IMG/VR virus record: IMGVR_UViG_3300020048_000017
Span: 1 to 64,000 of that record
Strand: one strand, 5' to 3'
DNA length: 64,000 nt
Source: a virus
The translations under genes and the position numbers were made by a program. The notes under the pieces were generated by a model that worked only from the letters and a program-made list of their open reading frames with translations, made no database searches and was not told the origin of the DNA. Position 1 is the first letter of the stretch. Each line of letters begins with the position of its first letter. Positions 6,950 through 33,276 of this stretch are shown here, piece by piece.

Positions 6950-7600
6950 GCGGGATGAATTAGATAGCCACGTAGATTTTTGAATCATTTCCAGCTTCCG
7001 GCCCGCCAGTAAAAATTAAAGTTTGCTTTAAGAGGGTTAAGAGAAAGTATAGTTTGCTTATGGAGGATTGAGGAGGGTTCAGGAATAAAGGGAATTGAAG
7101 AGGGTTTGGGGAAGTTGACGTTCGGAGGGTTCTGGGAGAGCGTTCGGATGAGGAGGGATTTTTGAAAAGTTTTGAAGGGAGGAGGGTTGGTAGAGAAGTT
7201 GGTCCCCCCATGCCCGCCATAGCCACCATAATCTTCATATTTTCCGTAAATACCCCTACCCCTTATAATTTCCATAACTTTAGTAATTGTCACAAAAAAG
7301 GAGCGCTTGCGCGCCCCTTTTATGGTATTTATGGAGACTATGGTTAATCCTCCAATCCCGTCGTGCGGGGGATATACTGTTCAAAAAGACAGGCGTCTTC
7401 GATCTCGGCGTTCTCCATCTCAAAAGAGGTGTTCAAAAGAAACCTGTTCATCTGGGCAGCAGAGCGGCGCTCGATGGCGGACTCGGTAGTGTTCATTTCG
7501 ACAGTGTTCGAGAGAGTAGTGGTCATATTCTTTAGCTTTCTTTATTGTTTGGTTAGTGGAGGTTTTCTCCCCTAGTCGCTCACTCCGTAGCGAGCGACAC
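6950..7600. other. non-coding junction between convergent gene blocks; GGAGGG repeats and degenerate boxes
   Basis: strand switch; G-rich then C-rich + strand; TGTTC half-sites at 7378, 7430, 7445, 7490, 7505. Confidence 0.6.
7576..7600 (-). terminator. hairpin downstream of LexA-like gene
   Basis: GTCGCTC...GAGCGAC inverted repeat just after the stop. Confidence 0.5.
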
Positions 7601-7614
7601 GGGGAAAAGACTGT

Positions 7615-8094
7615 TCACTTGGCCATCTTTTTGGTCTTCTTTTTCGTCACCGAATAGCCTAGCTTGCGAAGATACGCGATTGCGTCCCTTTCTTTATTGT
7701 CATCTAAGAATTCCGACATAGGAACGGCGGCGCGCGCCATACAATTTCCCATATTTCGCACTAGCAAACCGGCCTTTTCCAGCGATTTGAGGCAATTCAT
7801 AGCGCTTGTCTGGGAGGGAAAGCCCATAAATTTCTGAATATCCCTTGTGGACGGGGATACGCTATGCTTTGCACGGTGACAGGTAATATAATCGAGCACT
7901 GCCCTATCATTATTAGAAACGCTACCGTTTCCAGCGACTATCGTGACGGATTTTGCCGGTGCGGTACGAATCGCATCTGCCGTGATTGAAACGCTACCGT
8001 TTGAGCGTGTCATCTTGACACGGCCATTTTGAGACGTGCCGTGAATTTTGGCGATTTTCACCGCCGTGCTTTTCTTAACTGAATTTTTTCTCAT
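7615..8094 (-). CDS. LexA-type winged-helix DNA-binding domain protein lacking the S24 autocleavage domain
   Basis: residues ~60-125 NNDRAVLDYITCHRAKHSVSPSTRDIQKFMGFPSQTSAMNCLKSLEKAGLL match the LexA NTD pattern; ends ~35 aa later with no peptidase domain. Confidence 0.85.
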   Translation of the reverse strand: MRKNSVKKSTAVKIAKIHGTSQNGRVKMTRSNGSVSITADAIRTAPAKSVTIVAGNGSVSNNDRAVLDYITCHRAKHSVSPSTRDIQKFMGFPSQTSAMNCLKSLEKAGLLVRNMGNCMARAAVPMSEFLDDNKERDAIAYLRKLGYSVTKKKTKKMAK

Positions 8095-8132
8095 ATGAAC
8101 AAATCGGGTAAACTGGCGTCATTGCCAAGTAA

Positions 8133-8160
8133 AATATACCATACGCAAAAACGGTGTCAA
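8133..8160 (-). promoter_or_regulatory. promoter of LexA-like gene
   Basis: TTGACA-16 nt-TATATT on - strand. Confidence 0.75.
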
Positions 8161-8194
8161 ATTAATAATGTAACATTTTTTCATTTATTTTTCG

Positions 8195-8653
8195 TGCCCT
8201 TATGAACATGTATGTATGAACACTGGGTTGCGTGCGTCCCCGTGCGTGCGTGCGTCCCCGTGCGTCGTTGTTCATTTGAACACCTATCGGGGCTTTGTTC
8301 ATTAGAACAAAATTCGTATGCTCGTTTGAACACTACTCTCCTGAGCACTGTGCGTATGCACACCCTTGTTCATTTGAACACTGTGTATATGAACACTACT
8401 CATGTGGTCACTGTGCATTTGAACAACTGTCTAAAAAGGCTATGTTCAAGAAAACACTGTTCAAACGGGCACTGTTCAGAAAGGCATAGGGGAAATGTTC
8501 AAATGGACAAACTCCAAAAATGTTCAATCGAACACTACTTGGAAAAACCGTTCGAAAACGCGCGAGGGCTAAAACGCCGCAATTTATTAAAAAGGATTTT
8601 TGTTCAAAAGAACATATCGAAAATAATAACATTCATATTTGTTCAAATGAACA
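8195..8653. promoter_or_regulatory. dense cluster of ~14 TGTTC-N4-GAACA (SOS-type) boxes
   Basis: perfect at 8269, 8296, 8367, 8521, 8601, 8640; about 8 degenerate copies between them. Confidence 0.9.
8229..8266. repeat. (TGCG)n-CCCC tandem repeat
   Basis: TGCGTGCGTCCCCGTGCGTGCGTGCGTCCCCGTGCGTC. Confidence 0.8.
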
Positions 8654-8666
8654 TATTCCAGATACG

Positions 8667-8690
8667 AAAAAACCCCGCTTTCGCGGGGCT
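8667..8690 (-). terminator. intrinsic terminator, shared family CCCCGCGAAAGCGGGG-U tract
   Basis: identical 16-mer (+ strand CCCCGCTTTCGCGGGG) at 8673, 9174, 9446, 10135, 12165, 23205. Confidence 0.9.
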
Positions 8691-8702
8691 CTCGGTTTTC
8701 AA

Positions 8703-8951
8703 TTACTCAACCCATGACCGCCCGCCTTGCGTGACGAGCGTCTCCCATGATTTCATCCCTGCCATGATTTCCCATGATCCCTCATGGTTTTCCTGATACG
8801 ACGGGCGGGGCTTGGATGCCCGAATAGCGGAATCGCGTTTAGCGATTTCCACTTTGCGAATACGCTCCGCTTCATCGCGGGCGAAATTGGCGGCGGCGAT
8901 TTCCTCGCGCTTAGCGCGGGCTGACTCGATGATGGCTTGACGGTCTCTCAT
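8703..8951 (-). CDS. hypothetical protein (array unit)
   Basis: ORF between own promoter and terminator. Confidence 0.65.
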   Translation of the reverse strand: MRDRQAIIESARAKREEIAAANFARDEAERIRKVEIAKRDSAIRASKPRPSYQENHEGSWEIMAGMKSWETLVTQGGRSWVE

Positions 8952-9012
8952 GGTAAAACCAGCTTAAACCACTTATTCAAAATAAGCAAGTAATTATTTA
9001 GCCCAATTTTCA

Positions 9013-9025
9013 TATAATTTCCATA
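9013..9025. promoter_or_regulatory. TATAATTTCCATA motif in the promoter-proximal slot
   Basis: copies at 9013, 12501, 14792, variant 20613, partial 19194, each 23 nt upstream of a -35 hexamer; a further copy at 7264. Confidence 0.75.
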
Positions 9026-9042
9026 GCCCCATTTCCCCTCGG

Positions 9043-9154
9043 TGTTCAAACGAACATGTATGTGGTTTCTCTTAATGTGTTTCTTATTGGGTTGTTCAAA
9101 TGAACATTAACGAATCGGGCGGCTTAGTGAATTTCGAGAATGTTCAAACGAACA
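9043..9154. promoter_or_regulatory. three SOS-type boxes
   Basis: perfect at 9043, 9093, 9141. Confidence 0.9.
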
Positions 9155-9199
9155 AAAAGGGTCGAAAGAAAAACCCCGCTTTCGCGGGGCGTTCGGTTT

Positions 9200-9343
9200 T
9201 CAAATAGCCCGAGTGAGGGCGATGCGGCTCTCGTTGCGAGCGAGGCGACGGACGAAATCCGCAACTTGCGCGTCTTCGATTTTTTCAGACGCAACGAGGC
9301 GGGCGGTGAGAGAGGAGAGGATAAGGGAGACGATTTCTTTCAT
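9200..9343 (-). CDS. 47-aa peptide, paralog of 13071-13214
   Basis: MKEIVSLILSSLTARLVASEKIEDAQVADFVRRLARNESRIALTRAI; leaderless start. Confidence 0.75.
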   Translation of the reverse strand: MKEIVSLILSSLTARLVASEKIEDAQVADFVRRLARNESRIALTRAI

Positions 9344-9473
9344 GGATCTAATCTATTCCACTTATTTAAAAAAGCAAGTATTAATTTGTCCAATTTTTCA
9401 TAGCAACTTCGCTGTTCAAACGAACAAAAAGGAGCCAAGGAAAAACCCCGCTTTCGCGGGGCCTCGGTTAGGG

Positions 9474-9794
9474 TTAAAGGGATTCAACGATATACTTGGC
9501 AGCGGCGAGCCCGATATCCGACCCGTGATGCGCGGGAAAAGCATGGGGGAATTTACGTCTGAGATAAGCCACGGCTTTCTCGTCATGATTGAAAGCCCCG
9601 CGAACCATTCTGATTGCGGGAATTTTCATATTCGCGTCCCTGTAGACGATGCGGGCTCCGTCGATGACCGCGTCAACCCGCCCTCGAAGGTAAGGATCTA
9701 CGGGCTCCACCGAGGCGGCGAGAAGGAGGTTAGCGTCCCTCTCGCGGAGAGCGGGGGATTCGATGAGGGCGGCGATGATCAGGTTTTTGTCCAT
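9474..9794 (-). CDS. hypothetical protein with ribosomal bL12 CTD-like motifs
   Basis: starts MDKNLIIAAL; KIPAIRMVR...IGLAAAKYIVES; paralog of 15695-16027. Confidence 0.55.
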   Translation of the reverse strand: MDKNLIIAALIESPALRERDANLLLAASVEPVDPYLRGRVDAVIDGARIVYRDANMKIPAIRMVRGAFNHDEKAVAYLRRKFPHAFPAHHGSDIGLAAAKYIVESL

Positions 9795-9799
9795 GCAAG

Positions 9800-9828
9800 A
9801 CAGTAGCACAGGTCTTTTTATTTGTCAA
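9800..9828 (-). promoter_or_regulatory. array promoter (representative)
   Basis: TTGACA-17 nt-TACTGT-5 nt-ATG. Confidence 0.8.
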
Positions 9829-9864
9829 ACGCTTTTTTACAATGTTTAGATTTTATTTCAGGGC

Positions 9865-10115
9865 TGTTCTTATGAACAATGTTTTTGATTTTAGTTTGAT
9901 TTGAAATGTTCAAACGAACAATGTTTTGATTTCATTCTATAAACTGTTTTGAGTCCATGTTCAAATGAACACCAATGATTTGATTTGGGTAATAATTTGA
10001 TTTCATGTTTAAACGAACAATTGTTTTGAATACGCAAACTGTTTTGAGCTGGCTGTTCAAATGAACATGTGTTTTGATTTGAATAAGTGATTTGAATGGT
10101 GTGTTCAAATGAACA
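9865..10115. promoter_or_regulatory. six SOS-type boxes with ~48-nt period
   Basis: 9865, 9907, 9958, 10006 (1 mismatch), 10054, 10102. Confidence 0.9.
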
Positions 10116-10157
10116 ACTACGTAGGCCGAAAAAACCCCGCTTTCGCGGGGCTTTCTG

Positions 10158-10331
10158 TTACGATGGAAAATAATAATTGATCTTACCAAAAAAACCGTTA
10201 GGGATCACACAAAGCCCGCTCCGAGTTCCGCCCTTTCCATTTACCCATTTACAGGGCTTGTATCGACTCCCGTCGAGAATGATTTCCGCCAAGGTCCAAC
10301 TGACTCCGTCAACAATTAAGGTTTCGTTCAT
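10158..10331 (-). CDS. hypothetical protein
   Basis: leaderless ATG 10331 behind TTGACA-17-TATCGT. Confidence 0.6.
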   Translation of the reverse strand: MNETLIVDGVSWTLAEIILDGSRYKPCKWVNGKGGTRSGLCVIPNGFFGKINYYFPS

Positions 10332-10401
10332 TCCCAACGATATCACATAGGTTTCCAATTGTCAACAAGTATTTTACTACTTCAAAATTATTTAGCCCTG
10401 C

Positions 10402-10492
10402 TTTTCATTTGAACACCCTTCCTTAAACTCCCGTGCCATTGTTCATTTGAACATGGTTGTTTCTGTATGTGGATAGGATGTTCATTTGAACA
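10402..10492. promoter_or_regulatory. three SOS-type boxes, 38-39-nt period
   Basis: 10402 (1 mismatch), 10440, 10479. Confidence 0.9.
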
Positions 10493-10543
10493 AATCGTAG
10501 GCAAAGAAAAACCCCGCATAAGGCGGGGTTCTCTCGTTTGTGA

Positions 10544-10717
10544 TTAGCTGAGGTCCCAGCTAGTGAGTCTTTTCAGGTGAGGCGTGAAATCTTCCCCCAT
10601 AGAACGAAGTCGCGAGTTATTGGCGTGACGGTTTCGGCGGCGAGCGCTCTTTTTGATCGGTGAGAAATTACCGCCCACCCAACGGCGAGCCAGTTTGATG
10701 TCAAGAGTTGAGTCCAT
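10544..10717 (-). CDS. 57-aa basic peptide
   Basis: MDSTLDIKLARRWVGG...KKSARRRNRH...TSWDLS*, followed by terminator. Confidence 0.6.
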   Translation of the reverse strand: MDSTLDIKLARRWVGGNFSPIKKSARRRNRHANNSRLRSMGEDFTPHLKRLTSWDLS

Positions 10718-10755
10718 TTTTTAAGATAGTCGCGGCTTTCTAATTTGTCAAACGA

Positions 10756-10947
10756 TTATTTCCAGCTCTTTCTGATGAGGTATTTTTCACCGATCAGAGC
10801 GGAACCCGTAAGGAACCCGCCCGACATGATCAGGGCGGTGAAAAGGTTAGGCTCTTTCGTCATCACAAATACCGGCATTGCGATTGCGATTAGAACGAGT
10901 CCAAAAAGGAGGATTATACAGAGAAGGATATCAAAAACGATTTTCAT
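10756..10947 (-). CDS. small two-TM membrane protein
   Basis: leaderless start behind TTGACA-17-TATAGT. Confidence 0.6.
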   Translation of the reverse strand: MKIVFDILLCIILLFGLVLIAIAMPVFVMTKEPNLFTALIMSGGFLTGSALIGEKYLIRKSWK

Positions 10948-11007
10948 TACTGGACTATAATACACTTTTTTCTAATTGTCAAATGCTTTTTAATAATCTT
11001 TTTCGAT

Positions 11008-11123
11008 TGTTCAAATGAACAATTGCTGCTTATGATTTCAGGCGAATGTTCAAACGAACAAATACCTTGTTGTTCATTTAAACAATGGTATTGGCTATGT
11101 GGTTTACGTTGTTCATTTGAACA
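11008..11123. promoter_or_regulatory. four SOS-type boxes
   Basis: 11008, 11047, 11110 perfect; 11072 one mismatch. Confidence 0.9.
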
Positions 11124-11166
11124 TTCCGATAATCGAGAAAAGCTCGCGCTAGGCGAGCCGTTCAGT

Positions 11167-11484
11167 TTAAGCAACAAATCCGTTGCAACCAATAACATTG
11201 CCCTTGTCATCGCGGATTAGTTCCGCAGGTGAAAGAAGGTCTTTCCGATCAGGCATGGCACTTTTCACCATTGCGGAAACGATGAGAAGTTTGCCCGCCT
11301 CCCGCTCTGGAAGGTTTTCAACCTCGCCGAAATAGCGGGAGAAAACTGGGATACCTCCCGCAGCCGTTCCGGTTCGAGAGAGGATTTGAGAAACCCTTGC
11401 GACAATGCCGCAAGGTGGAAACACGACGTGGTGAGTTTCATCAAGGATGACAACGATTTCATGGGGGGTGAGGTTTTCGACCAT
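11167..11484 (-). CDS. conserved hypothetical protein (NLTPH family)
   Basis: NLTPHEIV...PPCGIVARV...LIVSAMV...RKDLLSP...RDDKGNVIGC. Confidence 0.7.
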   Translation of the reverse strand: MVENLTPHEIVVILDETHHVVFPPCGIVARVSQILSRTGTAAGGIPVFSRYFGEVENLPEREAGKLLIVSAMVKSAMPDRKDLLSPAELIRDDKGNVIGCNGFVA

Positions 11485-11543
11485 GAGAGACTTTAAACTA
11501 GAAAGTCTAATTTGTCAAACTCTTTTTTCAATTAGATTTCATT

Positions 11544-11673
11544 TGTTCATTTGAACGTGGTTCTACTCTATGTGTGTAATGTGTTCGTTTGAACACCCCC
11601 CCCATATCCTTATCGTTGTATTGTTCATTTGAACCTATGTGTTTCTATGGTGGTATTTTCGTTCATTTGAACA
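11544..11673. promoter_or_regulatory. four SOS-type boxes, 38-40-nt period
   Basis: 11544, 11582, 11622, 11660. Confidence 0.88.
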
Positions 11674-11714
11674 TTTTCTTAAACGAGAAAACCCCGCTTT
11701 CGCAGGGCTCTCTT

Positions 11715-12032
11715 TTACATGACGAAAACGAGATTGTGCATAGAGAGTTTTTGATATGTCGCTTTCACGATCTCACAAAATTCCTGAGTGTAGATTGAGG
11801 GCCTTTCGCTTTCGCCTGTCACGTAGCTTTCCAGATTATCAAACCAACGAGAGGCGAGAAACGAACCGATTTCATTGTGGCGGTTGAGAAGTTGACGGGC
11901 ACGACACCCCATTCGATATTCACGGGACCATTGCCCCGTATGGTAATGAGCGCTCCACAGCATGATTCCGATGAGTGATGCGATACGATTGTAATCTTTA
12001 ATTTTGAGTGGGTGCGTATAATAGGTTTTCAT
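11715..12032 (-). CDS. hypothetical protein
   Basis: array unit. Confidence 0.65.
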   Translation of the reverse strand: MKTYYTHPLKIKDYNRIASLIGIMLWSAHYHTGQWSREYRMGCRARQLLNRHNEIGSFLASRWFDNLESYVTGESERPSIYTQEFCEIVKATYQKLSMHNLVFVM

Positions 12033-12093
12033 GGTATTTTAATCTATGCGCGTTTTGAAATAAGTCAACAATTATTTTACCCTATCTTTCGAT

Positions 12094-12146
12094 TGTTCAT
12101 TTGAACATGTTTCTAATTCTCTTTTTATGCTTTGTTCATTTGAACA
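12094..12146. promoter_or_regulatory. two SOS-type boxes
   Basis: 12094 and 12133, both TGTTCATTTGAACA. Confidence 0.9.
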
Positions 12147-12188
12147 TTTCAACCACCGAAAAAACCCCGCTTTCGCGGGGCGTTCGGA

Positions 12189-12443
12189 TTAGAGGATGTA
12201 ACAGGTCAGCTCATAGGTGCCGCTGCTCATGCGGTAGATCGTGATATGGAAATACTTTTTAGTAGCTTTTCCTTTCAGCTCGACGATGGAAAGATGAGCT
12301 TGCTTCGTTTCCTCATATTTCAGGCCTTCGCTGAATTGTTCGTGGACTTCGCTCTGCGCAATAGAGGCGCGGGAATTGGCCGCGTGATTGATCGCGGCAT
12401 CAAGAGCTTGTGAGAGGGTGGCGTGGTAGATGGGGTATTCCAT
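12189..12443 (-). CDS. conserved phage hypothetical protein
   Basis: YHATLSQAL...HITIYRMSSGTYEL pattern. Confidence 0.65.
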   Translation of the reverse strand: MEYPIYHATLSQALDAAINHAANSRASIAQSEVHEQFSEGLKYEETKQAHLSIVELKGKATKKYFHITIYRMSSGTYELTCYIL

Positions 12444-12526
12444 TCCAGACAGTAAACCAGTTATTTCTAATTGTCAAACGGTTATTTCATCATTTTGAAT
12501 TATAATTTCCATAACGAACGAGGGGT

Positions 12527-12616
12527 TGTTCAAATGAACATGGCGGCTCTATTATTTAGGAGTATGTTCAAATGAACATTTTGAATAAGTCGTTCTAGCG
12601 TTTGTTCTAACGAACA
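12527..12616. promoter_or_regulatory. three SOS-type boxes, 38-nt period
   Basis: 12527, 12565, 12603. Confidence 0.9.
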
Positions 12617-12658
12617 TATTTATGGCAAAAAGAAAACCGCCCCGAAGGGCGGCTTCGA

Positions 12659-12898
12659 TCACTCGACAATTGTCACCGTAGCGTCCCCCCGAAGGATATC
12701 CAAATTTTCGAGAGTGTAGGGAACCCCGAGGAGATCCTTTTTACAGTTATCCTCCTCATCCCAGTATTCGCCATAGACTTCGAACATGCCCTCTCCGCAG
12801 TTGAGGATAAATCCCTCATGGCTTTTGAAGTCCACGAAAATGATGAAGCGCCCTTTTTCGGCGGTGACGATTGAGATGAAGTAATGGGTGTTTTCCAT
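12659..12898 (-). CDS. hypothetical protein
   Basis: array unit. Confidence 0.65.
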   Translation of the reverse strand: MENTHYFISIVTAEKGRFIIFVDFKSHEGFILNCGEGMFEVYGEYWDEEDNCKKDLLGVPYTLENLDILRGDATVTIVE

Positions 12899-13070
12899 AG
12901 AACACAGTAATCTAGTCTTTTCTAATTGTCAACAACTATTTTACTACTGTTTTCATTTTGTTCGTTTGAACATTTTCGTAGGGTGATTTGATTTTGTTCT
13001 AATGGACAACCCGCGAACAAAAGAGAGGGCGCAACGTATTGAGCCCCCTCCCACCATGTTTACCCAAAAA

Positions 13071-13214
13071 TTAGATTGCCCGCCCAAGGGCGAGACGGCT
13101 CTCGTTTCGAGCGAGACGCTTCGCGAAATCAGCCACGGCGGGGTCTTCGATTTTGGCAGCAGCCGCAAGACGATTCGAGAGAGAGTTTAAAATGATGTGC
13201 AAGGTTTCTTTCAT
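13071..13214 (-). CDS. 47-aa peptide, paralog of 9200-9343
   Basis: MKETLHIILNSLSNRLAAAAKIEDPAVADFAKRLARNESRLALGRAI. Confidence 0.75.
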   Translation of the reverse strand: MKETLHIILNSLSNRLAAAAKIEDPAVADFAKRLARNESRLALGRAI

Positions 13215-13370
13215 GTAATCAATATAGCAGGGTTTTAAAATAAGTCAACAATTGAATTGTATTATTTTCACCCCCAATCGCGCCATGTTAATTTGAACAC
13301 TATTAATTACACTGGATGTTCATTTGAACATTTTACGGATAAAGAGAAACCCGCGCAAGGCGGGCGGCTC

Positions 13371-13538
13371 TTATTCTGAAAGTGGGTTAGCTTGCAACCT
13401 ACGGTTTAGCCTTATATAACCAGCATACATAGCGAGCAACTCGCGGGACCAGCGGCGATGAGCCACGTTTTCGTGGTGGCGATCCCTGAAAGCTTTCCTG
13501 ACGATCACCATACACCGCTCTTGATAATTGAAGTTCAT
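13371..13538 (-). CDS. hypothetical protein
   Basis: leaderless ATG 13538. Confidence 0.55.
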   Translation of the reverse strand: MNFNYQERCMVIVRKAFRDRHHENVAHRRWSRELLAMYAGYIRLNRRLQANPLSE

Positions 13539-13652
13539 AAGTGACAATAGACGGCTTTTTAAATATGTCAACATTTGTTTTATCAAGGATTTATTTTGTT
13601 CAAATGGACATTTTATTGATAAGGGAAAACCCGCTCAAAGCGGGCTGTCCTT

Positions 13653-13874
13653 TTAGAGAGGAGTTCTCATCATTTTGGCGATCTGAGCCGTATTCATTGC
13701 GATACATCCGAAAGGTCTAGAGGTCGAAGGGTCATGCACGTATTGCCCCGCTCGGCGCTTAGCTTTGTTCCCATTGCCGCGAGCGCTTGCGGATTCCAAG
13801 TTCATTTTAATAATGCACCGAATCATTTTTGGATAGCGTGACGTAGGGTGAAGAGAGTTAAGTAATATCATCAT
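13653..13874 (-). CDS. hypothetical protein
   Basis: array unit. Confidence 0.5.
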   Translation of the reverse strand: MMILLNSLHPTSRYPKMIRCIIKMNLESASARGNGNKAKRRAGQYVHDPSTSRPFGCIAMNTAQIAKMMRTPL

Positions 13875-14030
13875 TTACATTGTATATTAGATTTTAGAAT
13901 TGTCAAGCGTTATTTTACTAATTAGGAGCGATGTTCAAACGAACATCTCGTTTCTTCGTAGTGTATGGGGTTATGTTCAAATGAACTTTTAGTAGACACA
14001 AAGAGACCCGCGCAAGGCGGGCCTAGTTGG

Positions 14031-14312
14031 TTAAAGTTTCGCAATCCTTCCGACGATTTCCATCACTTCGTTGGCGGGGATGTATCCCAGAACGTCTGGA
14101 GTGATCGGGGTTGAGTAGTCCAGAGAACCATCTTTCATAACCGCGATTTCCCAGAGTCCTTCCTCGCCACCGTAGGAATAAGGATTCTGGACGATTGAAG
14201 CAGAGTAGCCGTTAGGCAGATCCACAACGAAGCGGTGACCCCCAGCGTGAGCTTGATAATGCACGTTCGCAAAATTTAGATCGGCAGGTTTGGTAAAAAA
14301 GGTGATTTCCAT
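14031..14312 (-). CDS. conserved phage hypothetical protein
   Basis: LPNGYSASIV...SYGGEEGLWEIAV...YSTPITPDVLGY widespread phage pattern. Confidence 0.7.
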   Translation of the reverse strand: MEITFFTKPADLNFANVHYQAHAGGHRFVVDLPNGYSASIVQNPYSYGGEEGLWEIAVMKDGSLDYSTPITPDVLGYIPANEVMEIVGRIAKL

Positions 14313-14462
14313 TTTTAAATCTATCACACAATAAATTAAATGCAAGTTCTTTTTATCAATTATTTTCAACGTGTTCAAATGAACAACTTAAGCGATTTGT
14401 TCTAATGAACATTTTATTGATAAGAGAAAACCCTCCCCGAGGGGAGGGCTCTCGCCCTTATC

Positions 14463-14714: not shown

Positions 14715-14917
14715 AGGTGGTGCGGCTTTGCCGTGAGGTAAGGTATCACAGTTCTTTTTAAAAGTCAAACGGTTTTTAATTCATTTTTAATTATAATTTC
14801 CATAATGTTCAATCGAACAACGTTTTGAATTGTTCAAATTTTTAATATGTTCGTTTGAACCAATGTTCTTATGAACAAGTTCTAGGCAAAAGAAAACCCG
14901 CTTGCGCGGGCTTAGCT

Positions 14918-15190: not shown

Positions 15191-15318
15191 GGTAAAGCAA
15201 TATAGCGCAGCTTTCTAATTTGTCAACACTTATTTTATCAGGTATTTGATTTTGTTCAAATGAACTTACGCAGATAGGGAAAAGGGGCTGGCACTCGCCA
15301 GCCCCTACCATGACCACC

Positions 15319-15555
15319 TTAAATTTTCACGAAGACAGGAAAGCCGAAGTGTTTCATTGCTTCGAATGGGTTAGTGAAAGCGTTGGATTTGTAACCAACG
15401 TAATAAGAGCTTTTCTTACCCATTTCAACCACAGTTCCGGTCATGAGACCTTTCCCGTTTTTGATCCTCTCATATTCTCCATCTGGGAGTTCGAGGATAA
15501 ATTGTTCATTTTTCGGACAAGGTCCGACGTTTCCGATGTAAAGCATTCTGGTCAT
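15319..15555 (-). CDS. hypothetical protein
   Basis: array unit. Confidence 0.6.
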   Translation of the reverse strand: MTRMLYIGNVGPCPKNEQFILELPDGEYERIKNGKGLMTGTVVEMGKKSSYYVGYKSNAFTNPFEAMKHFGFPVFVKI

Positions 15556-15694
15556 AAATTAATATAACACACTATTTTAAATTGTCAAACGCTTTTTGTA
15601 TATATTTTTCGATTGTTCAAATGAACGCAAGTATAGACAATGTTCAAATGAACAAACTCTAGGCAAAAGAAAAGCCCCTTGCGGGGCATGACCC

Positions 15695-18394: not shown

Positions 18395-18416
18395 TCTTCA
18401 CTATACCACACGTTTT

Positions 18417-19618: not shown

Positions 19619-19647
19619 AAAGAAATATAACACTCTTTTTAATAATG

Positions 19648-23478: not shown

Positions 23479-23631
23479 GGGATACTATAACACAGCTTTT
23501 TTAATTGTCAAGCGGTTTCTTTATCTTTTTCGAGGCTCTCTGAATGCTCTTCTGCTTCCCGTTCTTTTTCTTCATCCCTGCGACGATCAGCGTAATCTAT
23601 CGCCCGTTCCCATTGGTCGGGATCTTTGTAA

Positions 23632-25181: not shown

Positions 25182-25281
25182 AATTAACTATAACACTCTT
25201 TTAAAATAAGTCAAGTATTATTTGCGCCGATTTTCCAGAATGTTCAAATGAACCAAGGGAAAGACCCCTTTCGGGGTAGTA

Positions 25282-25644: not shown

Positions 25645-25662
25645 GTTTTACTATAGCACGGT

Positions 25663-25887: not shown

Positions 25888-26197
25888 AACTTTTAATCGT
25901 GTCGCTTCATGATATAGGTTCGATTCTTAACGTATCGCATAGGAGTCACGTTAGCTATCAGAGTCCTCTTAAGCTTGCGGGTAATGTAACCCCCGCTAGT
26001 CTCGCCCGCTTCATTAGTGTAACGGTAACCGTATCTGTATTGCCCTCTAAACATGTCCCACTATATCCCCTTATTTCTAATTGTCAAATGATTTTAATAC
26101 AGAAAGCCCCGTTGTTCAAATGAACATATCCCTACCCTTTGTTCAAAAGAACATACTGTGCTAAAGAAAAAGAGCGGGGAGAATCCCCGCCCTCCCC

Positions 26198-26866
26198 TTA
26201 TGCAATTTTCAAATCGACCTTTTTCTTAGCGATTCCGTGCGCAGGGAATCCGACGATTGCGTTTCGTTGCTTTTGACAGAGTCCACAAGAGGCGCAAGTG
26301 ACGTCATCCCGAATCACGGCGGGACAAACAACCACTTTATGACCGTCAGGGGTGATCGTGTTTTTGGTTTGATCGCTTGGCAGAACGACGACGACAGGCC
26401 CCACGTTTAAAGCTTTTAATTCGTCAGCGTGGCGCAAGTTATTGGCGGACAGATTCACGGTAAACCCGTTTTCGTTTGCGTGCCTCACCGCCTCCATATT
26501 TTCCGCCGTCATGGGTTTATGCGTATAGGTGAAACCCTTCCGCCCACGATTGGCACTTACTAGAGCTTTAAGCGCTTTCGTGTCGATAACGTTATTATCA
26601 CCCGCCAAGTCGCCCGCCTGATTATGCCGCCAGAGTTGACCGCGACGAATCTTTTTAACCGCCGCAAGGAAACCCTCGAAATCGGTCCCGCGTTCCCCGC
26701 TAGTGATTTTATTCCAGTGAATGTTCAGCGGTCCGCCTTGAGCGTAGCAACCGCCAGACTTGAACGGGCAAGCGTCAGGGCAAGTCGCCTTAGAAGAAGT
26801 CGAAACCGGAATTGGTCCGGTTTTCATATTGTGCGAAATCGGGGTGAGAGAAAGGTTATTTGTCAT
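26198..26866 (-). CDS. Cys-rich putative Fe-S (Gp88/radical-SAM-like) protein
   Basis: CPDACPFKSGGCYA; LWRHNQAGDL; FTYTH; CPA...CASCGLC. Confidence 0.55.
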   Translation of the reverse strand: MTNNLSLTPISHNMKTGPIPVSTSSKATCPDACPFKSGGCYAQGGPLNIHWNKITSGERGTDFEGFLAAVKKIRRGQLWRHNQAGDLAGDNNVIDTKALKALVSANRGRKGFTYTHKPMTAENMEAVRHANENGFTVNLSANNLRHADELKALNVGPVVVVLPSDQTKNTITPDGHKVVVCPAVIRDDVTCASCGLCQKQRNAIVGFPAHGIAKKKVDLKIA

Positions 26867-27060
26867 GCCGCACTATAACACAGGATTTGTAATAGTCAAG
26901 CGCTTTTTTAAATGATTTTCAATTATTTTTTTGGTGTCGATTTGAACAGTGTTCGCGTGAACAGTGTTCGGGTATCGACGGATGTTCTTATGAACATTCT
27001 GATTCTTTGTTCGTTTGAACAAAACTGCTGCAAGAAAAAGAGCCCCGAAGGGCTCTCTTA

Positions 27061-27258
27061 TTATGGAATCCTTACAAAGCTTTCTTCAGTGAATTCAAAG
27101 AATTGAAGACTCTCACCTTTATCGGGCTCTAAGTCGCAACCGAATTCAGAAGCAAGGTCTACTAGATCCTCCTCAGGGGTAATAACAAGGTTTCTGTCGG
27201 ATTCTACGTAATAGGTAGAATCTCCGTATCTATGTGTATGGACACCAATGAATTTCAT
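27061..27258 (-). CDS. hypothetical protein
   Basis: array unit. Confidence 0.6.
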   Translation of the reverse strand: MKFIGVHTHRYGDSTYYVESDRNLVITPEEDLVDLASEFGCDLEPDKGESLQFFEFTEESFVRIP

Positions 27259-27734
27259 AATTATTTTATTAGAGTTGAACTAGAGTTGCTTTTCCTGATA
27301 CGATATGAGTTTTTCTCATACAGGGTTTACCGTCCTTTTCCATCAGGGTTGTGTAACGGAATCCGTCACGGATGATTTTTACATTTACGGGTTTCGTCCC
27401 TTTTGAGACCTGTTCTTGAACGGCTTGGAGTAGTGACATAATTGACTATACCACATTAATTAGAAATGTCAAGCGAATTTTTGCCGTTCTCTTTCGTAAC
27501 GATCTTCGTTAAAATCTCCATAGTAAGAGACCTCGCAGAAAAAACTGCCATCCTGTTCTTGGAAGTCTCGAACCCTCACGGAATCAAAATCGCCATAACA
27601 GCACTGCAAGAAAAGATGTAGATTGATAACTAGAATACGTTTTTCCATAAAAGCACCTTATCACAGTTTCTAATAAAGTCAAGCGACTATTTCAAAATAT
27701 ATAGATGTTCAAATGAACAGCCGCCCTATACAGA

Positions 27735-28076
27735 AAAACCCCGCACACTTAACCAGTTATTCGGTTAAAGTGGCGGGGCTATCTAGTTGATCAACTCTTA
27801 AGTGTGCTTCTTCTTTATCTCCCCCATACGGGTTAACAAATTCTGCCCTTCTCTTATTAAACCCGAACCCTTAAGTTTCCGAGAGTGTTCTATCTCTATC
27901 TTAAGTGACATGTGGAAGAACTTTCACACGCACCCAAAGTTGAAAAGATTTGTTGTATTATCAGGGATCAAAGGTGGCCCTCCCCCCGTATAATCTATCT
28001 TGTATCTAGTGACTAGCTAGACTGTCGCTCAGCGGACCTTGGGGAGTCACCCTTTAGGCGGACCTTGCTTCAACAA
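27735..28076 (-). ncRNA. candidate non-coding or long-leader RNA unit
   Basis: promoter TTGACT-16-TATAGT; first ~165 nt without ORF, CAAGGTCCGC twice, hairpins; only a 37-aa ORF before an extended terminator. Confidence 0.35.
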
Positions 28077-28237
28077 GGTTACTATACCACACCTTTTGTG
28101 GAAGTCAAGAGCTTTTTGCATTAAATTTTGAAATGTTCAAGAGAACAAAATGCCCCAAAAACAAAGCCCCGCTTTCGCGAGGCCCGTTTCACCTATTTGC
28201 AGTAGGATTTTTACCTGTCAGCAATGTGCTCCCTAAA

Positions 28238-28558
28238 TTAATCACCCCCACCGCATGAGCCCGAATCACTAGACCCAGAGTCATAGCTTCCCGAATCGTG
28301 GGAGCTTGAACCGTAGTCGTAGCTAGGAGTGGGGTCGTGCCTAGAAGGCTCCGAATGGGTATCATGAGCCCTTACTTCCTGAGCCCTTACTTCCTGATCG
28401 TGAGCGATACGATTAAATTCATTGGTTAGAATTACCGTATTAGTCACCGCTTCAACCAGTTCATCAACGTCCGGTCCACCATAATAGCCGCGAGGAGATC
28501 GGGGCATTCTGGATTGAGGTTTTTCTTTCTTTCCGAAGATTCGTTTTAATATCGTCAT
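28238..28558 (-). CDS. hypothetical protein with Ser/Asp/Gly low-complexity tail
   Basis: SSSHDSGSYDSGSSDSGSCGGGD. Confidence 0.65.
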   Translation of the reverse strand: MTILKRIFGKKEKPQSRMPRSPRGYYGGPDVDELVEAVTNTVILTNEFNRIAHDQEVRAQEVRAHDTHSEPSRHDPTPSYDYGSSSHDSGSYDSGSSDSGSCGGGD

Positions 28559-28587
28559 AGGGAACTATACTACAGATTTTGATTTTG

Positions 28588-28968
28588 TCAAGAGAAAGTT
28601 CTTTCAACAGCTCCTTCTACCACACCTTTATGTCTGGGCAGAATCGTGAAATCGGGGGCCTTTAAATCCAAATTAAAAACCTCCTTAATCTCTTTTGCAC
28701 TGAGGAAGTGGAGAGACGAGAGAACAGCTCTGATAAAAGGCTCGTATTTTGAATCAGTCTCTTCTATATTTCTTTGAATATTAAGGAGGAAAACTCGGCA
28801 GCGAAAAGGTTTGCTTTCAATCAGCCTTTCGATAATTCCCGATAGAATAGAGAAGATATCGCTAATGTTTGCGGGCTCGTAGCCGTCAGCCCTAAGGATC
28901 TTGTGGAGGTCTTCAATAAGGTCACCCTCTTTATACCAACGTTTCGAATAAAGAAATAGATTGTTCAT
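28588..28968 (-). CDS. hypothetical protein
   Basis: leaderless promoter unit. Confidence 0.6.
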   Translation of the reverse strand: MNNLFLYSKRWYKEGDLIEDLHKILRADGYEPANISDIFSILSGIIERLIESKPFRCRVFLLNIQRNIEETDSKYEPFIRAVLSSLHFLSAKEIKEVFNLDLKAPDFTILPRHKGVVEGAVERTFS

Positions 28969-29069
28969 TCCGCACTATACAAGATGTTTTGAATTTGTCA
29001 AGGACTTTTGTTTTGAATTGTTCATAAGAACATTGGCCGCCACGAAAAAAGCCCCGAAGGGCTTTAGTC

Positions 29070-29615
29070 TTAAACGAATGGATAGTTATCCTTTCTAGGG
29101 ACTGCCGGTTTCTCACCGAACTTGATTGTAGTCTTACACCGGAGGTACCTTCTGCTCGACCCTTTCTGAATCTTGTTGTGCATCGCCATCGTGATATCGT
29201 GAGAGCGGCAGGAGCAATGATAGGTAACCCTTGAGGTAGTTCGTGCTTTGGGTAGCGCAACCGAATGGCACCTTTGAGCCTTCACTTCGAAGTCCCGCAT
29301 GATACGCTTCCAGTATTGACCGTGGGGAGGGTTTCTCTTGCGATCCCTTGGATACGTAGGGTGATTGTATTGCACAAGGTGGGCAACTTCGTGAGGGACG
29401 GTGTGGTCGAATAAGTGGTCCCATCCACCCTCGACTTGAAGAGCCGTCAGGTTGAAACGCAATTCATTTGTGTGTGAGTTCGCGGTCCCCATCGTGGTTC
29501 CTTTAAGATCGAAACGAATCGTGGGGTTAAGTCTAACCCCGTGGATTTCCTCCGCTTTCTGGAGGTAGATTTTAACACGGGTGAGGATTTGGTTTTTGGC
29601 GTCAGTTATTGTCAT
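29070..29615 (-). CDS. sprT: SprT-like zinc metalloprotease
   Basis: HTVPHEVAHL, PHGQYWKRIM, YHCSC. Confidence 0.88.
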   Translation of the reverse strand: MTITDAKNQILTRVKIYLQKAEEIHGVRLNPTIRFDLKGTTMGTANSHTNELRFNLTALQVEGGWDHLFDHTVPHEVAHLVQYNHPTYPRDRKRNPPHGQYWKRIMRDFEVKAQRCHSVALPKARTTSRVTYHCSCRSHDITMAMHNKIQKGSSRRYLRCKTTIKFGEKPAVPRKDNYPFV

Positions 29616-29620
29616 GCCGA

Positions 29621-29648
29621 ACTATAACACAGTGTTTTTAATTGTCAA
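29621..29648 (-). promoter_or_regulatory. array promoter (sprT)
   Basis: TTGACA-16 nt-TATAGT-5 nt-ATG; box 25 nt upstream at 29674. Confidence 0.8.
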
Positions 29649-30080
29649 GAGGTTTTTTGATTTGAATTCAAAATGTTCATAAGAACAAATCGGCCACATG
29701 AAAAAAGACCGAACGAATCGGCCTTTCTCCTGAGGAATCTTACCCCGTCGTCCTTATAGGTTTTGGCTTTCACCTTCCCAGTGATTTCTGGGAGTCGGTT
29801 TCCACTTCCTACAACTCTTTCTCGCATTAGGGCTAAAAGCTTTAGGTTCGCTTTCTGTCGTTCACCCTTGATTACTTCCATGGGCTAATCATACCAGCCA
29901 GCTTTTTTTAGGTCGCTCGGTTGACCGTCATCGTGTAAAGCCCGACTAAACTTCTATTTAAGCACTAGATACTGATTTACTTACCTACTCTTTGACTAGA
30001 GTGTAGCAACAAATTCTAAGTCGCATCTCCGTTTCCTCTCTCACCAATAATTGGCCACTTATAATGAGAGTCTAGAAAGT

Positions 30081-30362
30081 TTAAAGATTATTTAGCAGAT
30101 GGCTGATAGTAGTTTCTACCCCTTGTGCATACTCGTAAGACCCAATTGCAATTCCCGCACAAGCATGAGCGAGAATAAGTGATTCGATTCCGTCAATAGC
30201 GCGGTTGAAAGCTACATCTTCTTCATCCATTTCCAAAACCCTAAGGTTTGAAGAGATCGAACCCGAAGGTCCGTCAGGAGTGCTTTTAACGAAGACTTGG
30301 ATTCCGTGGGGCAGGTTGAATGATTTCATTTGTGAATGTAACACAGGATTTGGTTTTGTCAA
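30081..30362 (-). CDS. hypothetical protein
   Basis: ORF; true start may be ~30347. Confidence 0.55.
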   Translation of the reverse strand: MTKPNPVLHSQMKSFNLPHGIQVFVKSTPDGPSGSISSNLRVLEMDEEDVAFNRAIDGIESLILAHACAGIAIGSYEYAQGVETTISHLLNNL

Positions 30363-30368
30363 GAGATT

Positions 30369-30578
30369 TTATCCAATAAAGTTTCCATACTCGTCAACGA
30401 TTGGAAAGTCTTCGAAAAGAGGAAATCCGTTAGAATAATTTTTTCCCGTAGCCATAGACACGTTAACCCTAGCCTCTACCCCGTGCAAGTCACTACCTAA
30501 AAGCTCGACTTCTATGGTAGCGCTGTATTTCTCTAGCAGGGACTTTAGCTCTTCGTTAAACTCGTTGAATTTTTCCAT
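30369..30578 (-). CDS. hypothetical protein
   Basis: leaderless ATG 30578. Confidence 0.6.
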   Translation of the reverse strand: MEKFNEFNEELKSLLEKYSATIEVELLGSDLHGVEARVNVSMATGKNYSNGFPLFEDFPIVDEYGNFIG

Positions 30579-30790
30579 GTTATTACTATAGCACAATGAT
30601 TTTAATTGTCAAGCTCTTTTTTCTTCGGGCGAAAAGATAATTCTTTTCGGTTCAAATGAACATCCTCGGTATATTAAAAATCCGCTGGAGAGAATGCACC
30701 CGATTAATGCACTCCTACAACGGACTTCTAACGGCTATTCAATGAGAGGGAACCGTTCGACACGACCTCTGCCGATATCTCTATTCGGAT

Positions 30791-31000
30791 CTAGCTGCCA
30801 AATTCTTCAAGGGATTCTACTACGTCCCAAGGCCAAAGACCAAAATGCCCTTTTGCGTCTTCAAATCTATCATCGTCGTGACAACCTGAAAATCCCGCTC
30901 CTAAAGGGCTATCTCCCAATACCAAGTCTTTGACTATCATGTCAACCCCATCTTCTGTAACGACGTATCGGGTATTAGGTTTGATTTCAATTGGTTCCAT
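30791..31000 (-). CDS. hypothetical protein
   Basis: 69-aa ORF. Confidence 0.55.
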   Translation of the reverse strand: MEPIEIKPNTRYVVTEDGVDMIVKDLVLGDSPLGAGFSGCHDDDRFEDAKGHFGLWPWDVVESLEEFGS

Positions 31001-31081
31001 CGGTCACTTAAGGTCTCTGAGTTTTTGATTGTAATCTGTTTTTACTTTTCTCCAAGATGTTTCCAAAGCTTCCCTTTGTGA

Positions 31082-31198
31082 TTTGACAGAATCAAGGGCG
31101 ACTCTTACTTAAAAGAATTAGATAAATGTGACTTACTTTGTATGAATTGTCACATGGAAGAACACTATCTCCACTTAGATAAGCCCGACAGGAATTGA
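31082..31198 (+). pseudogene. HNH endonuclease C-terminal remnant
   Basis: startless frame reading ...KELDKCDLLCMNCHMEEH, directly after a TGA, next to the tRNA cluster. Confidence 0.5.
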
Positions 31199-31252
31199 AC
31201 CTGCAACCCTTCGATTATGAGTCGAGCGCACTAACCCTTGTGCTACAGGCTC
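31180..31252 (-). tRNA. tRNA-Ile2/Met (CAT)
   Basis: full cloverleaf; CGACTCATAATCG anticodon arm typical of lysidine tRNA-Ile2. Confidence 0.85.
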
Positions 31253-31262
31253 TTATAAAAAA

Positions 31263-31350
31263 TGGTCCCTTGAGCGGGACTCGAACCCGCACGGTCGCAA
31301 TGACCAGCGGATTTTAAGTCCGCAGCGTCTACCAATTCCGCCACCAAGGG
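31263..31350 (-). tRNA. tRNA-Leu (TAA)
   Basis: cloverleaf with long variable arm, CTTAAAA loop, encoded CCA. Confidence 0.92.
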
Positions 31351-31354
31351 AAAA

Positions 31355-31428
31355 CGAGACGCGAGGGATTCGAACCCGTCAACCTACGGATTAGAAATCC
31401 GTTGCTCATCCATTTGAGCTTCCGCCTC
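31355..31428 (-). tRNA. tRNA-Arg (TCT)
   Basis: ACGGA-TTTCTAA-TCCGT arm; slightly imperfect acceptor and T stems. Confidence 0.82.
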
Positions 31429-31452
31429 AAAAATTGTTACACCACTAAAGGC

Positions 31453-31746
31453 TTATTCGGAAAGCCATTGCGCCATTTCGAGGAACGTGTCGAATTCGCA
31501 GACTTTGAAACCCCTGTTATCAAGATCTGCTAGGGCGTCCGATAAGTGAATTTTTGTCCCATACCAACTATTACCATTAGTCATGTTACTTAATAAATAA
31601 GGAATGTAAACTGTGTGTCCGTCAGCACACTTACCTTTCATCACAAACCCCGATCCTTCCCCATGTTTAATTCCGTAGAATTTGCGGACATCAGCTTCTG
31701 AAGGTCTGAATTCGTCAGATGCTTTGTTTAGGACTAAATTTCTCAT
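31453..31746 (-). CDS. hypothetical protein, KFYG paralog family
   Basis: KFYG...GF...TNGNSW...EFDTFLEMAQWLSE. Confidence 0.7.
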   Translation of the reverse strand: MRNLVLNKASDEFRPSEADVRKFYGIKHGEGSGFVMKGKCADGHTVYIPYLLSNMTNGNSWYGTKIHLSDALADLDNRGFKVCEFDTFLEMAQWLSE

Positions 31747-31775
31747 AAGTAATTATAATCTATAAATGGGATTTG

Positions 31776-32081
31776 TCAAGCTTTATCTTCGATGAGCCAT
31801 CGGCCTAACTCTTTAAAAGTTTCGAATTCAAAGATCTCGAAATTGCCGTCAATTTTCTGGAAAAGACCTTCGAGGGTGGGCGAATGGAATTGATCCCAAC
31901 AGTTGCCCTTAGTCAAAGCTTCGGTGATCAAGGCTTTGTAATCGCCATCTTGATGGGAGGTCCTTGTAACGAAACCCTTATCGTTAAAAGTTGTATGTCT
32001 AACTCCGTAAAATTTTTCTTCATCCGCCTCATTAGATGTGAAAACGAGAGCTTCGGGCTTTTGTTGAACGAGTTTTTTCAT
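31776..32081 (-). CDS. hypothetical protein, KFYG paralog family
   Basis: KFYG...KGF...LTKGNCW...EFETFKELGRWLIE. Confidence 0.7.
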   Translation of the reverse strand: MKKLVQQKPEALVFTSNEADEEKFYGVRHTTFNDKGFVTRTSHQDGDYKALITEALTKGNCWDQFHSPTLEGLFQKIDGNFEIFEFETFKELGRWLIEDKA

Positions 32082-32602
32082 AATTGATTATAGCGCAGAT
32101 TTTAGATTTGTCAAGGACTATTCTGCGAGCCAGAGAAAAAGTTCTTTATAAGTATCGAACTGAAAGATTTCGAAATCCACCCCAGCCTTTCGAATCAATT
32201 CTTTTAAAGACTTGTCTGCAAAGCCGTAAGAGTCGCCCTTGTGAAATGTATTTGCAGGGACAATTTTGTAAATACCATCGAAAAGCTTCTCTTTTAAAAT
32301 TGTGCCTTTCCGCCCGTCTTCTCGAAGAGTTCCGTAAAAAGACCGTTCGGAAACTTCGTCGAGAGAAAATGTATTCTGATCAATTGCTGGTTGGTATCAT
32401 TTCATACAGCTACTATATCACAGCTTCAAGAAATGTTAAGCCGAAATTTTCCAAAGAGTTTTTGTTCAAATGAACTCAGCGAGGGCTTTAGCCTTTAAGA
32501 ATGAACGATTTCGTGATAGTCATTAATAGAACAAGAATCAGATTTCATCCATTCGATAATTGCCTGAGCCGCCACTTCTGAAGGAAATCCTTTAAGGACT
32601 TC

Positions 32603-32881
32603 TCAGAGAGTATCATGGTCAGTTTTGAAAGGGTTTTCGGTTTGAACCCAGATTCCTTCCTTTACGGATTCTTTAAAAAAATCCATATCGGTAAAATCCT
32701 GAACATTTTCTCCGCTCTCATCAAGAAACGTGACTGACCCATCTTCCAACTTGAGACAATATCTCTCGCCGTAACCTTGCTCTGAGGGACCCTCTTTCCT
32801 TACACGCCTCGGAAAGGGTCCGTCTTTATGGATATAGAATTTAGCGGGGCTCATAAATTGATCTAGTTCTGGTTCTTTCAT
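32603..32881 (-). CDS. hypothetical protein
   Basis: coupled ORF. Confidence 0.55.
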   Translation of the reverse strand: MKEPELDQFMSPAKFYIHKDGPFPRRVRKEGPSEQGYGERYCLKLEDGSVTFLDESGENVQDFTDMDFFKESVKEGIWVQTENPFKTDHDTL

Positions 32882-33171
32882 AGGATATTTTTCAGCTCTT
32901 TCTTAAACTCGTCAAAGGTGACGAATAGCATGGTGTTTGAGTCGATGATTCGCCACTTCTGGCTAATTGTGTTGAAGATCTCTTTGAGTTTTTCGTCTGG
33001 ATCTGGGGCCGCGTTTACTAAAGTAAGTTCGTGACGATAGTGGACTCCCACCCCTCCTGACAAAACGTATTCCCACTTGCCATAACTAGCGTGAGAACTT
33101 GGAACTATGTTTTCAACGGTGAAGATTTCCTGACCGTAAAAGCTGCTTTTAACTTTGTCCCCAATTTTCAT
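32878..33171 (-). CDS. hypothetical protein
   Basis: leaderless promoter unit. Confidence 0.6.
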   Translation of the reverse strand: MKIGDKVKSSFYGQEIFTVENIVPSSHASYGKWEYVLSGGVGVHYRHELTLVNAAPDPDEKLKEIFNTISQKWRIIDSNTMLFVTFDEFKKELKNIL

Positions 33172-33276
33172 ACCGAACTATAACACCTCTTCAAGAAAAG
33201 TCAAGTAGTTTTTATTTGGCCGCTAGTTTGTTCAGTAGAACATTTTGTTCATTTGAACCAGCCGCCCCTTTCGGGA

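Follow-up and report, generated by a model that had tools for sequence, protein, structure and literature searches.

The complete virus record IMGVR_UViG_3300020048_000017 of IMG/VR is 179,178 bp long and, from a 55-bp overlap of its ends, looks like a circular assembly; the window analysed here is its first 64 kb. The subject of this analysis is an array of small minus-strand genes in whose spacers the palindrome TGTTC-N4-GAACA recurs many times, together with a gene at the end of the array whose product carries the DNA-binding domain (DBD) of LexA. A preliminary description of this DNA had proposed that the array and the LexA-DBD gene form one integrated system. The two do look like parts of one system, with the phage protein as the putative reader of the sites on sequence grounds. 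In the counts of 96, 94, 84 and 10 given below, a box is TGTTC-N4-GAACA with at most one mismatch. The main features are as follows.

7615–8094, minus strand: gene for a 159-residue LexA-DBD-only protein (match to Pfam PF01726, LexA_DNA_bind)
8088–8101, minus strand: degenerate box with two mismatches over the start codon of the LexA-DBD gene, a candidate autoregulatory site
8133–8160, minus strand: TTGACA-N16-TG-TATATT promoter that serves the LexA-DBD gene, with a leader of ~38 nt behind it
8269–8653: densest cluster, 10 boxes and degenerate half-sites in a stretch of ~400 bp that seems to hold no gene and lies upstream of the LexA-DBD gene
9043–33259: main array, 84 boxes in the spacers of ~50–65 small minus-strand genes (motif scan)
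33479–40953, minus strand: box-free sigma-70-like promoters, compact and without a spacer, each lying within the end of the gene before it
41604–41631: outlying pair of boxes, 23 bp upstream of a TTGACT-N16-TG-TATATT promoter

We counted 60 perfect copies of the palindrome in the window, where shuffled sequences give 0.09, and a further 36 with one mismatch, for a total of 96 against an expectation of 2.5. All 60 perfect copies of the record fall in the window; by position, 58 were placed within 8269–33242 and one at 41604, and none was found in the other 137 kb of the record. Positions 1–8268 are devoid of boxes when scanned with up to one mismatch, the first box beginning at 8269. Ninety-four of the 96 boxes lie inside 8269–33259 and the remaining two form the outlying pair. 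Placement is markedly non-coding: by crude gene calls, 74 of the 94 boxes (~79%) occupy the 32% of the region without genes (binomial p 3e-20), and the boxes scored as coding are mostly in doubtful open reading frames (ORFs) of the 8.2–8.7 kb cluster. These figures bear out the preliminary description, which had counted about 60 perfect and 30–40 near-perfect palindromes, put the chance expectation well below one, seen no boxes in the first 6.9 kb and located almost all of them in spacers; the perfect copies stay confined to the window when the whole record is scanned. The motif that it had named was correct in its ten specified bases and too short, in that most sites read TGTTCA-WW-TGAACA (TGTTCA-AA/TT-TGAACA) in either orientation, with G as the most frequent variant at position 6. 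Box density declines with distance from the 7615–8094 gene, from ~23 to ~3 per 2.5 kb (successive bins from 8.2 kb outward hold ~23, 16, 13, 9, 8, 8, 4, 7, 3 and 3, the first bin taking in the dense 8269–8653 cluster), and this densest cluster sits where two transcription blocks converge.

The minus-strand units share a common order in which a G+C-rich terminator hairpin with a T run is followed by one to six boxes, a promoter and a small gene. The promoters are strong and classically sigma-70-like (TTGACA-N16-(TG)-TATAnT), and an A-tract lies at roughly −45 to −40. Among 52 strong promoters on the minus strand between 8000 and 45000, 37 place the ATG exactly 5 nt past the −10 hexamer, so that the early mRNAs should be leaderless, without room for a Shine-Dalgarno sequence. 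One unit may serve as an example.

15553–15654, minus strand: spacer with boxes at 15641–15654 and 15614–15627, then a 25-bp gap containing an A-tract
15583–15588 and 15561–15566, minus strand: −35 and −10 hexamers, with the ATG at 15553–15555, 5 nt past the −10 and thus leaderless
15319–15555, minus strand: the gene behind this spacer

The boxes are positioned precisely with respect to these promoters and to one another. In 22 of 27 boxed strong promoters the proximal box ends 23–26 bp before the −35 hexamer (the mode, 25 bp, accounts for 14), and in four more it ends 36–37 bp before, which is one helical turn further out. If the ATG is taken as +1, the proximal box covers about −72 to −59. 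Spacings between boxes peak at 16–17, 27, 38–39 and 48 bp, corresponding to a period of ~11 bp with a phase of ~0.45 turn (vector strength 0.49; p 0.0002 with the scan over periods taken into account). When the cassettes are aligned, sequence is conserved at the box, the hexamers and the A-tract and hardly anywhere else, which argues that the geometry is maintained by selection and does not reflect recent duplication. The near-zero information of the flanks likewise rules out MITE-like (miniature inverted-repeat transposable element) or recently duplicated cassettes, and promoters of the Bacteroidota type are ruled out by the classical TTGACA-N16-TATAnT hexamers. The fixed helix face relative to the −35, taken together with the phased multi-box spacers, points to a nucleoprotein structure that communicates with RNA polymerase and not to passive decoys.

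Twenty-five promoters within 7–45 kb are free of boxes and equally strong, with a mean score of 10.9 as against 10.5 of 12 for the boxed promoters, most of which have an extended −10 and an A-tract. Since equally strong unboxed promoters exist, the box is evidently not a part of the promoter and belongs instead to the spacers that follow terminators. We also observed that several intergenic gaps between 19619 and 31775 of the window are exactly 29 bp long (among them 19619–19647, 23479–23507, 28559–28587 and 31747–31775), because the compact promoters begin inside the preceding gene.

The 7615–8094 protein scores 27.3 bits against PF01726 (curated cut-off 23.7). Its AlphaFold model has three parts, namely a small N-terminal beta domain (residues ~25–53), a LexA-type winged helix (61–125) and a C-terminal helix with a basic tail. 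The best matches of the model in the PDB by Foldseek are the LexA DNA-binding domains 3JSO, 1LEA and 3K2Z (the last at 1.1 Å); by sequence, a search of the PDB gave only a weak match to a LexA DBD. Identity to verrucomicrobial LexA reaches 45% over the domain, and the recognition helix reads PSQTSAMNCLK in the phage protein as compared with ASQTAA(V/M)NHLR in the verrucomicrobial proteins. The chain ends ~35 residues past the wing and the S24 peptidase family PF00717 has no match in the whole 179-kb genome; the product is therefore not a LexA proper, and the array is indeed capped, as first described, by a gene for a LexA DBD alone. Neither a second LexA-like gene nor a tyrosine integrase was found in the 179-kb genome, and a search of the ESM Atlas with the N-terminal 58 residues of the protein gave no usable match. 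With no integrase and no S24 repressor found, a temperate lifestyle with LexA-controlled lysogeny, as in GIL01 or CTX, is unlikely, and the phage is probably virulent. The LexA-DBD gene itself is set apart from the array: unlike the array genes it has a leader, and its promoter lacks the phased proximal box, the nearest box being 108 bp upstream.

A word-based homologue search retrieved the phage protein alone, and the relatives described here, 66 in number, come from an exhaustive search. Five full-length homologues share the three-part architecture at 30–40% identity, and at least two of the five lie in related phages, judging by synteny and shared genes. Four of the five (at loci L034, L030, L117 and L118) have a cluster of boxes upstream, and the fifth contig shows only 164 bp. 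The recognition helices and the upstream sites at these four loci are as follows.

L034, protein P0002: helix PSQNSTMLALK; upstream, four perfect TGTTCAAATGAACA sites
L030, protein P0022: helix GNTVAQRAI; upstream, ~16 sites, mostly TGTT(T/C)A-NN-T(A/G)AACA
L117 and L118, proteins P0011 and P0044: helix SQS(S/R)AQQ; upstream, CTACTCA-NN-TGAGTAG interleaved with TGTTCA half-sites, hybrids included

The half-site thus drifts along with the recognition helix, and this is the chief reason for thinking that the boxes are read by the phage protein. Scans of metagenomes with the P0011/P0044 alignment and with the conserved upstream 22-mer found nothing, and a viral scan for paired TACTCA-NN-TGAGTA sites returned unrelated contigs only. 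A second conserved motif, TATGGAAATTATA, stands between the boxes and the promoter in a few units of the window (9013–9025, 12501–12513, 14792–14804 and 7264–7276), with 11 matches in the window at up to two mismatches as against 3.2 expected. It recurs just upstream of the LexA-DBD gene promoter at two distant homologue loci (L117:173–185 and L118:514–526), and a viral scan for the motif together with TTGAC again returned only unrelated contigs.

Boxes are also found in phage genomes for which no such regulator was detected. Related IMG/VR fragments, whose terminase and structural proteins are 27–45% identical to those of the present phage, are likewise rich in boxes; one of them, G001 (IMG/VR 3300006867_000048), has 25 perfect boxes in 30 kb. 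The G001 boxes (L115/L116, ~4–19.4 kb) mostly read TGTTCA-GA-TGAACA, with the palindrome extended to CTAC...GTAG, and each lies ~50 bp from a conserved cassette bearing a CGTGATCACG-like palindrome and TATTTGC. A TTGACA-type promoter is absent at these cassettes, which suggests that G001 may use another promoter type or another factor. The complete genome of an unrelated phage of 80 kb, G002 (IMG/VR 2565956680_000001), contains 10 identical TGTTCAAATGAACA boxes in three clusters (L018, L029), flanked by extra AATGAACAA half-sites. When Pfam PF01726 and the family profile were run against ten box-bearing IMG/VR records, all but one of which are 6–51% complete, no match was obtained.

Erill et al. 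are said to have reported TGTTC-N4-GAACA in 2016 as the LexA operator of Verrucomicrobia, and the preliminary description had identified the boxes with this motif. We derived the host motif independently from 74 verrucomicrobial lexA loci, and the identification stands: a box with at most one mismatch lies 16–51 bp before the start codon in 44 of them, compared with none of the 74 in a coding control. PMC8565304 cites Erill et al. 2016. At the host lexA genes the N4 spacer is unconstrained and the boxes overlap the −10 and start region. As a side observation, many host lexA promoters (L035–L114, the 80 bp before the start) have a further TGTTCA half-site directly after the box, running into the ATG, and some of the boxes at these loci end in the start codon. 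Phage and host sites therefore share the same 10 specified bases and differ in arrangement, in that the host sites are single or paired, lie over the −10 and start and leave the N4 free, whereas the phage sites prefer A6 and T9, lie at −72 to −59 and form phased arrays. The overlap with the core promoter of DNA-damage genes that marks the SOS boxes of Verrucomicrobia was not found, since the phage boxes lie upstream of the UP region and before genes of unassigned function.

The host can be approached through the same relatives. The traceable full-length LexA proteins among the 66 are from Verrucomicrobiota, one cluster being named Chthoniobacterales LexA, and a genome scan made with another match gave 80 loci, all but one of which are titled Verrucomicrobiota or its classes and orders. 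Given the near-match of the recognition helix and the identity over the domain, the host is probably a verrucomicrobium. In a search of sequencing runs the DNA matches were aquatic metagenomes and no RNA runs were listed, and the sample is probably of aquatic origin. Five verrucomicrobial genomes (3–5.6 Mb) contain 1–6 perfect boxes each, compared with the 60 in the phage.

The reading that we prefer, and regard as fairly likely, is that the phage encodes a captured, signal-blind LexA DBD which binds the boxes, the early array being a single regulon under its control. The DNA-binding domain would have been captured from a verrucomicrobial host, losing the self-cleaving S24 domain and gaining new N- and C-terminal modules, with the half-site specificity of host LexA (GTTC/GAAC) retained and sharpened to TGTTCA-N2-TGAACA. 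The regulator gene, which has a strong promoter of its own, lies where the array ends, and a dimer of its product would bind the box centred near −65 of ~45 early transcription units. Further boxes some 27, 38 or 48 bp apart would also be bound, successive boxes lying on alternating faces of the helix, so that each spacer between terminator and promoter would carry a phased nucleoprotein array and the entire set of host-takeover genes would answer to a single factor that RecA could not inactivate. The preliminary description had offered three possibilities, namely titration of host LexA, use of host LexA as a ready-made factor and takeover of the sites by the phage protein as a timer. The last, in so far as it has the phage protein read the sites, is the best supported, by the clusters upstream of four of the five homologues, by the covariation of helix and half-site and by the helical phasing. 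Judging by their sequence, the phage boxes should be bound by host LexA as well, and with 60 perfect sites facing 1–6 per host chromosome some titration would be hard to avoid. Titration of LexA, or competition with it, is therefore probable as a by-product or a further function of the array.

Several points weigh against this. The covariation comprises four loci, three of them shorter than 1.3 kb, and concerns the clusters adjacent to the regulator and not whole arrays. No homologue of the protein was found in G001 and the other box-rich related fragments, all of which are 6–51% complete, and in the complete G002 genome neither a LexA-like gene nor a homologue was detected. Since G002 has the boxes all the same, the 14-mer can serve another reader, possibly host LexA. 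Host LexA, for which the boxes are a perfect operator match, may even be what chiefly occupies them, above all when infection begins. Repression from −65 would be unusual, and the 25-bp peak could stem in part from tight packing against the UP-like A-tract and not from contact with RNA polymerase.

As to the sign of regulation, we lean very slightly towards delayed shut-off or attenuation over activation, because boxed promoters come close to the consensus and match the unboxed ones in strength, and because the promoter of the regulator gene has no proximal box. Activation is a close second. The phage LexA-DBD protein would here act in class-I fashion, like gp6 of phage GIL01 at P3, with the boxed units as delayed-early genes whose expression would rise as the protein builds up; we regard this as possible and on balance doubtful. 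Sites near −65 on a fixed helix face, some of them a full turn further out, are arranged as for an activator, and a regulator promoter without a proximal box combined with a degenerate box over the start codon is often seen with activators that repress their own synthesis. Gp6 is itself a LexA homologue that activates (PMC6182141). However, promoters that depend on an activator are usually weak in the −35, and the boxed promoters, at 10.5 of 12, are as strong as the unboxed ones at 10.9; moreover, the gp6 site covers the −35 and not −65 (PMC6182141).

It is also conceivable, if rather unlikely, that host LexA is the main reader and that the phage boxes act as a sponge inducing the SOS response without damage, or as a sensor of the SOS state for early expression, with the phage protein serving as an uncleavable substitute at host SOS promoters or as a competitor of LexA. 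The boxes match perfectly the operator seen at 44 of 74 verrucomicrobial lexA genes; five host genomes have 1–6 perfect boxes where this one phage genome has 60; an unrelated phage without the regulator has the same 14-mer in clusters; and LexA is already in the cell at time zero, before the phage protein has been made. By the numbers of boxes, titration, the first of the three possibilities in the preliminary description, is physically plausible, but it leaves the fixed distance to the −35 unexplained, as a sponge needs neither the 25-bp spacing nor the 11-bp phasing. Use of host LexA as a ready-made factor, the second possibility, is conceivable too, but the boxes lie at about −72 to −59 instead of over the promoter as in host lexA, and with boxes off the core promoter classical LexA repression is unlikely. 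Positions 6 and 9 are constrained in the phage sites and free in the host sites, the half-sites in relatives drift with the helix of the phage protein, and the identity of the host is itself a deduction.

The box array and the uncleavable protein could also work together in a two-part takeover of the SOS system, which we think quite unlikely. Phage DNA, as it enters and replicates, would draw off host LexA with its 60 perfect operators against 1–6 in the host, the RecA-proof protein would fill phage and host operators and so uncouple the damage response from RecA, and occupancy of the array would time the shut-off of the ~45 early genes. Very improbable, finally, are boxes that serve as structural or recombinational parts of mobile cassettes like the PeSLs (promoter-early stem-loops), or as iteron- or centromere-like sites of replication or partition: the terminator and early-promoter spacers among small ORFs do resemble those of T4-type phages (PMC4122927), the phage has rIIA/rIIB genes and the densest cluster lies at the convergence point of two transcription blocks, but the unconserved flanks offer little homology for recombination, the palindromes suit a DNA-binding protein encoded alongside, and the sites are phased to promoters over 25 kb without origin-like clustering.

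The genes of the array mostly have no family match. The two exceptions, each with a homologue in G001, are listed below with the rII-like genes of the window.

26198–26866, minus strand: DUF7227 gene (E 3e-97)
29070–29615, minus strand: gene for a SprT-like metallopeptidase (family match)
50302–53303, minus strand: rIIA-like and rIIB-like genes (PHROGs, E 1e-45)

A DNA polymerase and a distant large terminase are encoded as well, and the phage has no cultured relative. Outside the window, ORF G000 156886–158259 (plus strand) shares 63% identity over 59 residues with the cut-off end of the gene at L030, whose full 399-residue product is annotated WGR/PARP_reg/PARP, and could thus possibly encode an ADP-ribosyltransferase.

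If the phage protein does read the sites, they would form, to our knowledge, the largest operator set of a single regulator in a phage. The DBD of a global repressor of the host would then have been taken over by a phage, freed of its response to the signal and put in overall charge of a host-takeover array. Such a system would be simple, with one protein, one 14-bp site and ~45 natural promoters offering graded site numbers in a fixed geometry, and would bear on the control of consensus promoters from −65, on how phages interfere with or make use of the SOS response and on the co-evolution of proteins with their operators. It would also provide a host assignment, probably to the Verrucomicrobiota, for a clade of large phages from water and soil, none of which is in culture. 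Literature searches found nothing similar to the combination of such an array with a LexA-DBD regulator, and three aspects appear to be undescribed so far: the way the parts are combined, the size of the set (96 sites, ~45 promoters) and the strictness of its placement upstream of promoters. The remark in the preliminary description that no phage with LexA-type operators on such a scale was known has to be qualified, since GIL01 gp6 and many-copy operators are precedents for the components.

Tens of dispersed copies of one operator are familiar from the stoperators of Cluster A mycobacteriophages, in which a single regulator (L5 gp71) governs much of the genome through sites in the short gaps between genes. 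Stoperators are asymmetric 13-mers that are oriented with transcription, lie inside transcribed DNA and block elongation in lysogeny. The present sites, with their putative phage reader, are also dispersed copies of one operator, 96 in all, but they are palindromic, lie in untranscribed spacers, are phased to promoters and occur in both orientations, and they are about three times as numerous. The phi29 protein p4 binds upstream of the −35 and contacts RNA polymerase, repressing strong promoters and activating weak ones. By analogy it may offer a model for the shut-off of consensus promoters from −65, although p4 is unrelated to the present protein and has few sites.

The components of the system have precedents in GIL01 gp6 (PMC6182141), the PeSL cassettes (PMC4122927) and the L5 stoperators. 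The PeSL cassettes of T4-type phages combine a terminator with an early sigma-70 promoter and separate many early genes that are small, little conserved and located in a plastic region (PMC4122927, PMC2839356). The present array has the same composite of terminator and early promoter between small variable ORFs but differs in that one to six boxes fill the slot between the two. We know of no description of PeSL cassettes as carrying an operator between terminator and promoter. The closest parallel to the protein is gp6 of the Bacillus thuringiensis tectivirus GIL01, a truncated LexA homologue that acts as a phage transcription factor alongside host LexA, is ~44% identical to the DBD of host LexA and lacks the cleavable domain (PMC6182141). 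Gp6 works at a single late promoter, where its site covers the −35, and belongs to a small temperate phage whose lysogeny involves LexA together with gp7 (PMC6182141). Both proteins are phage-encoded, consist of a LexA DBD without the remainder of LexA and resemble the LexA DBD to a similar degree (here up to ~45%, verrucomicrobial). Unlike gp6, however, the present protein has additional N- and C-terminal modules, and its putative sites number 96, lying near −65 of ~45 early promoters in a 179-kb phage in which no integrase was found.

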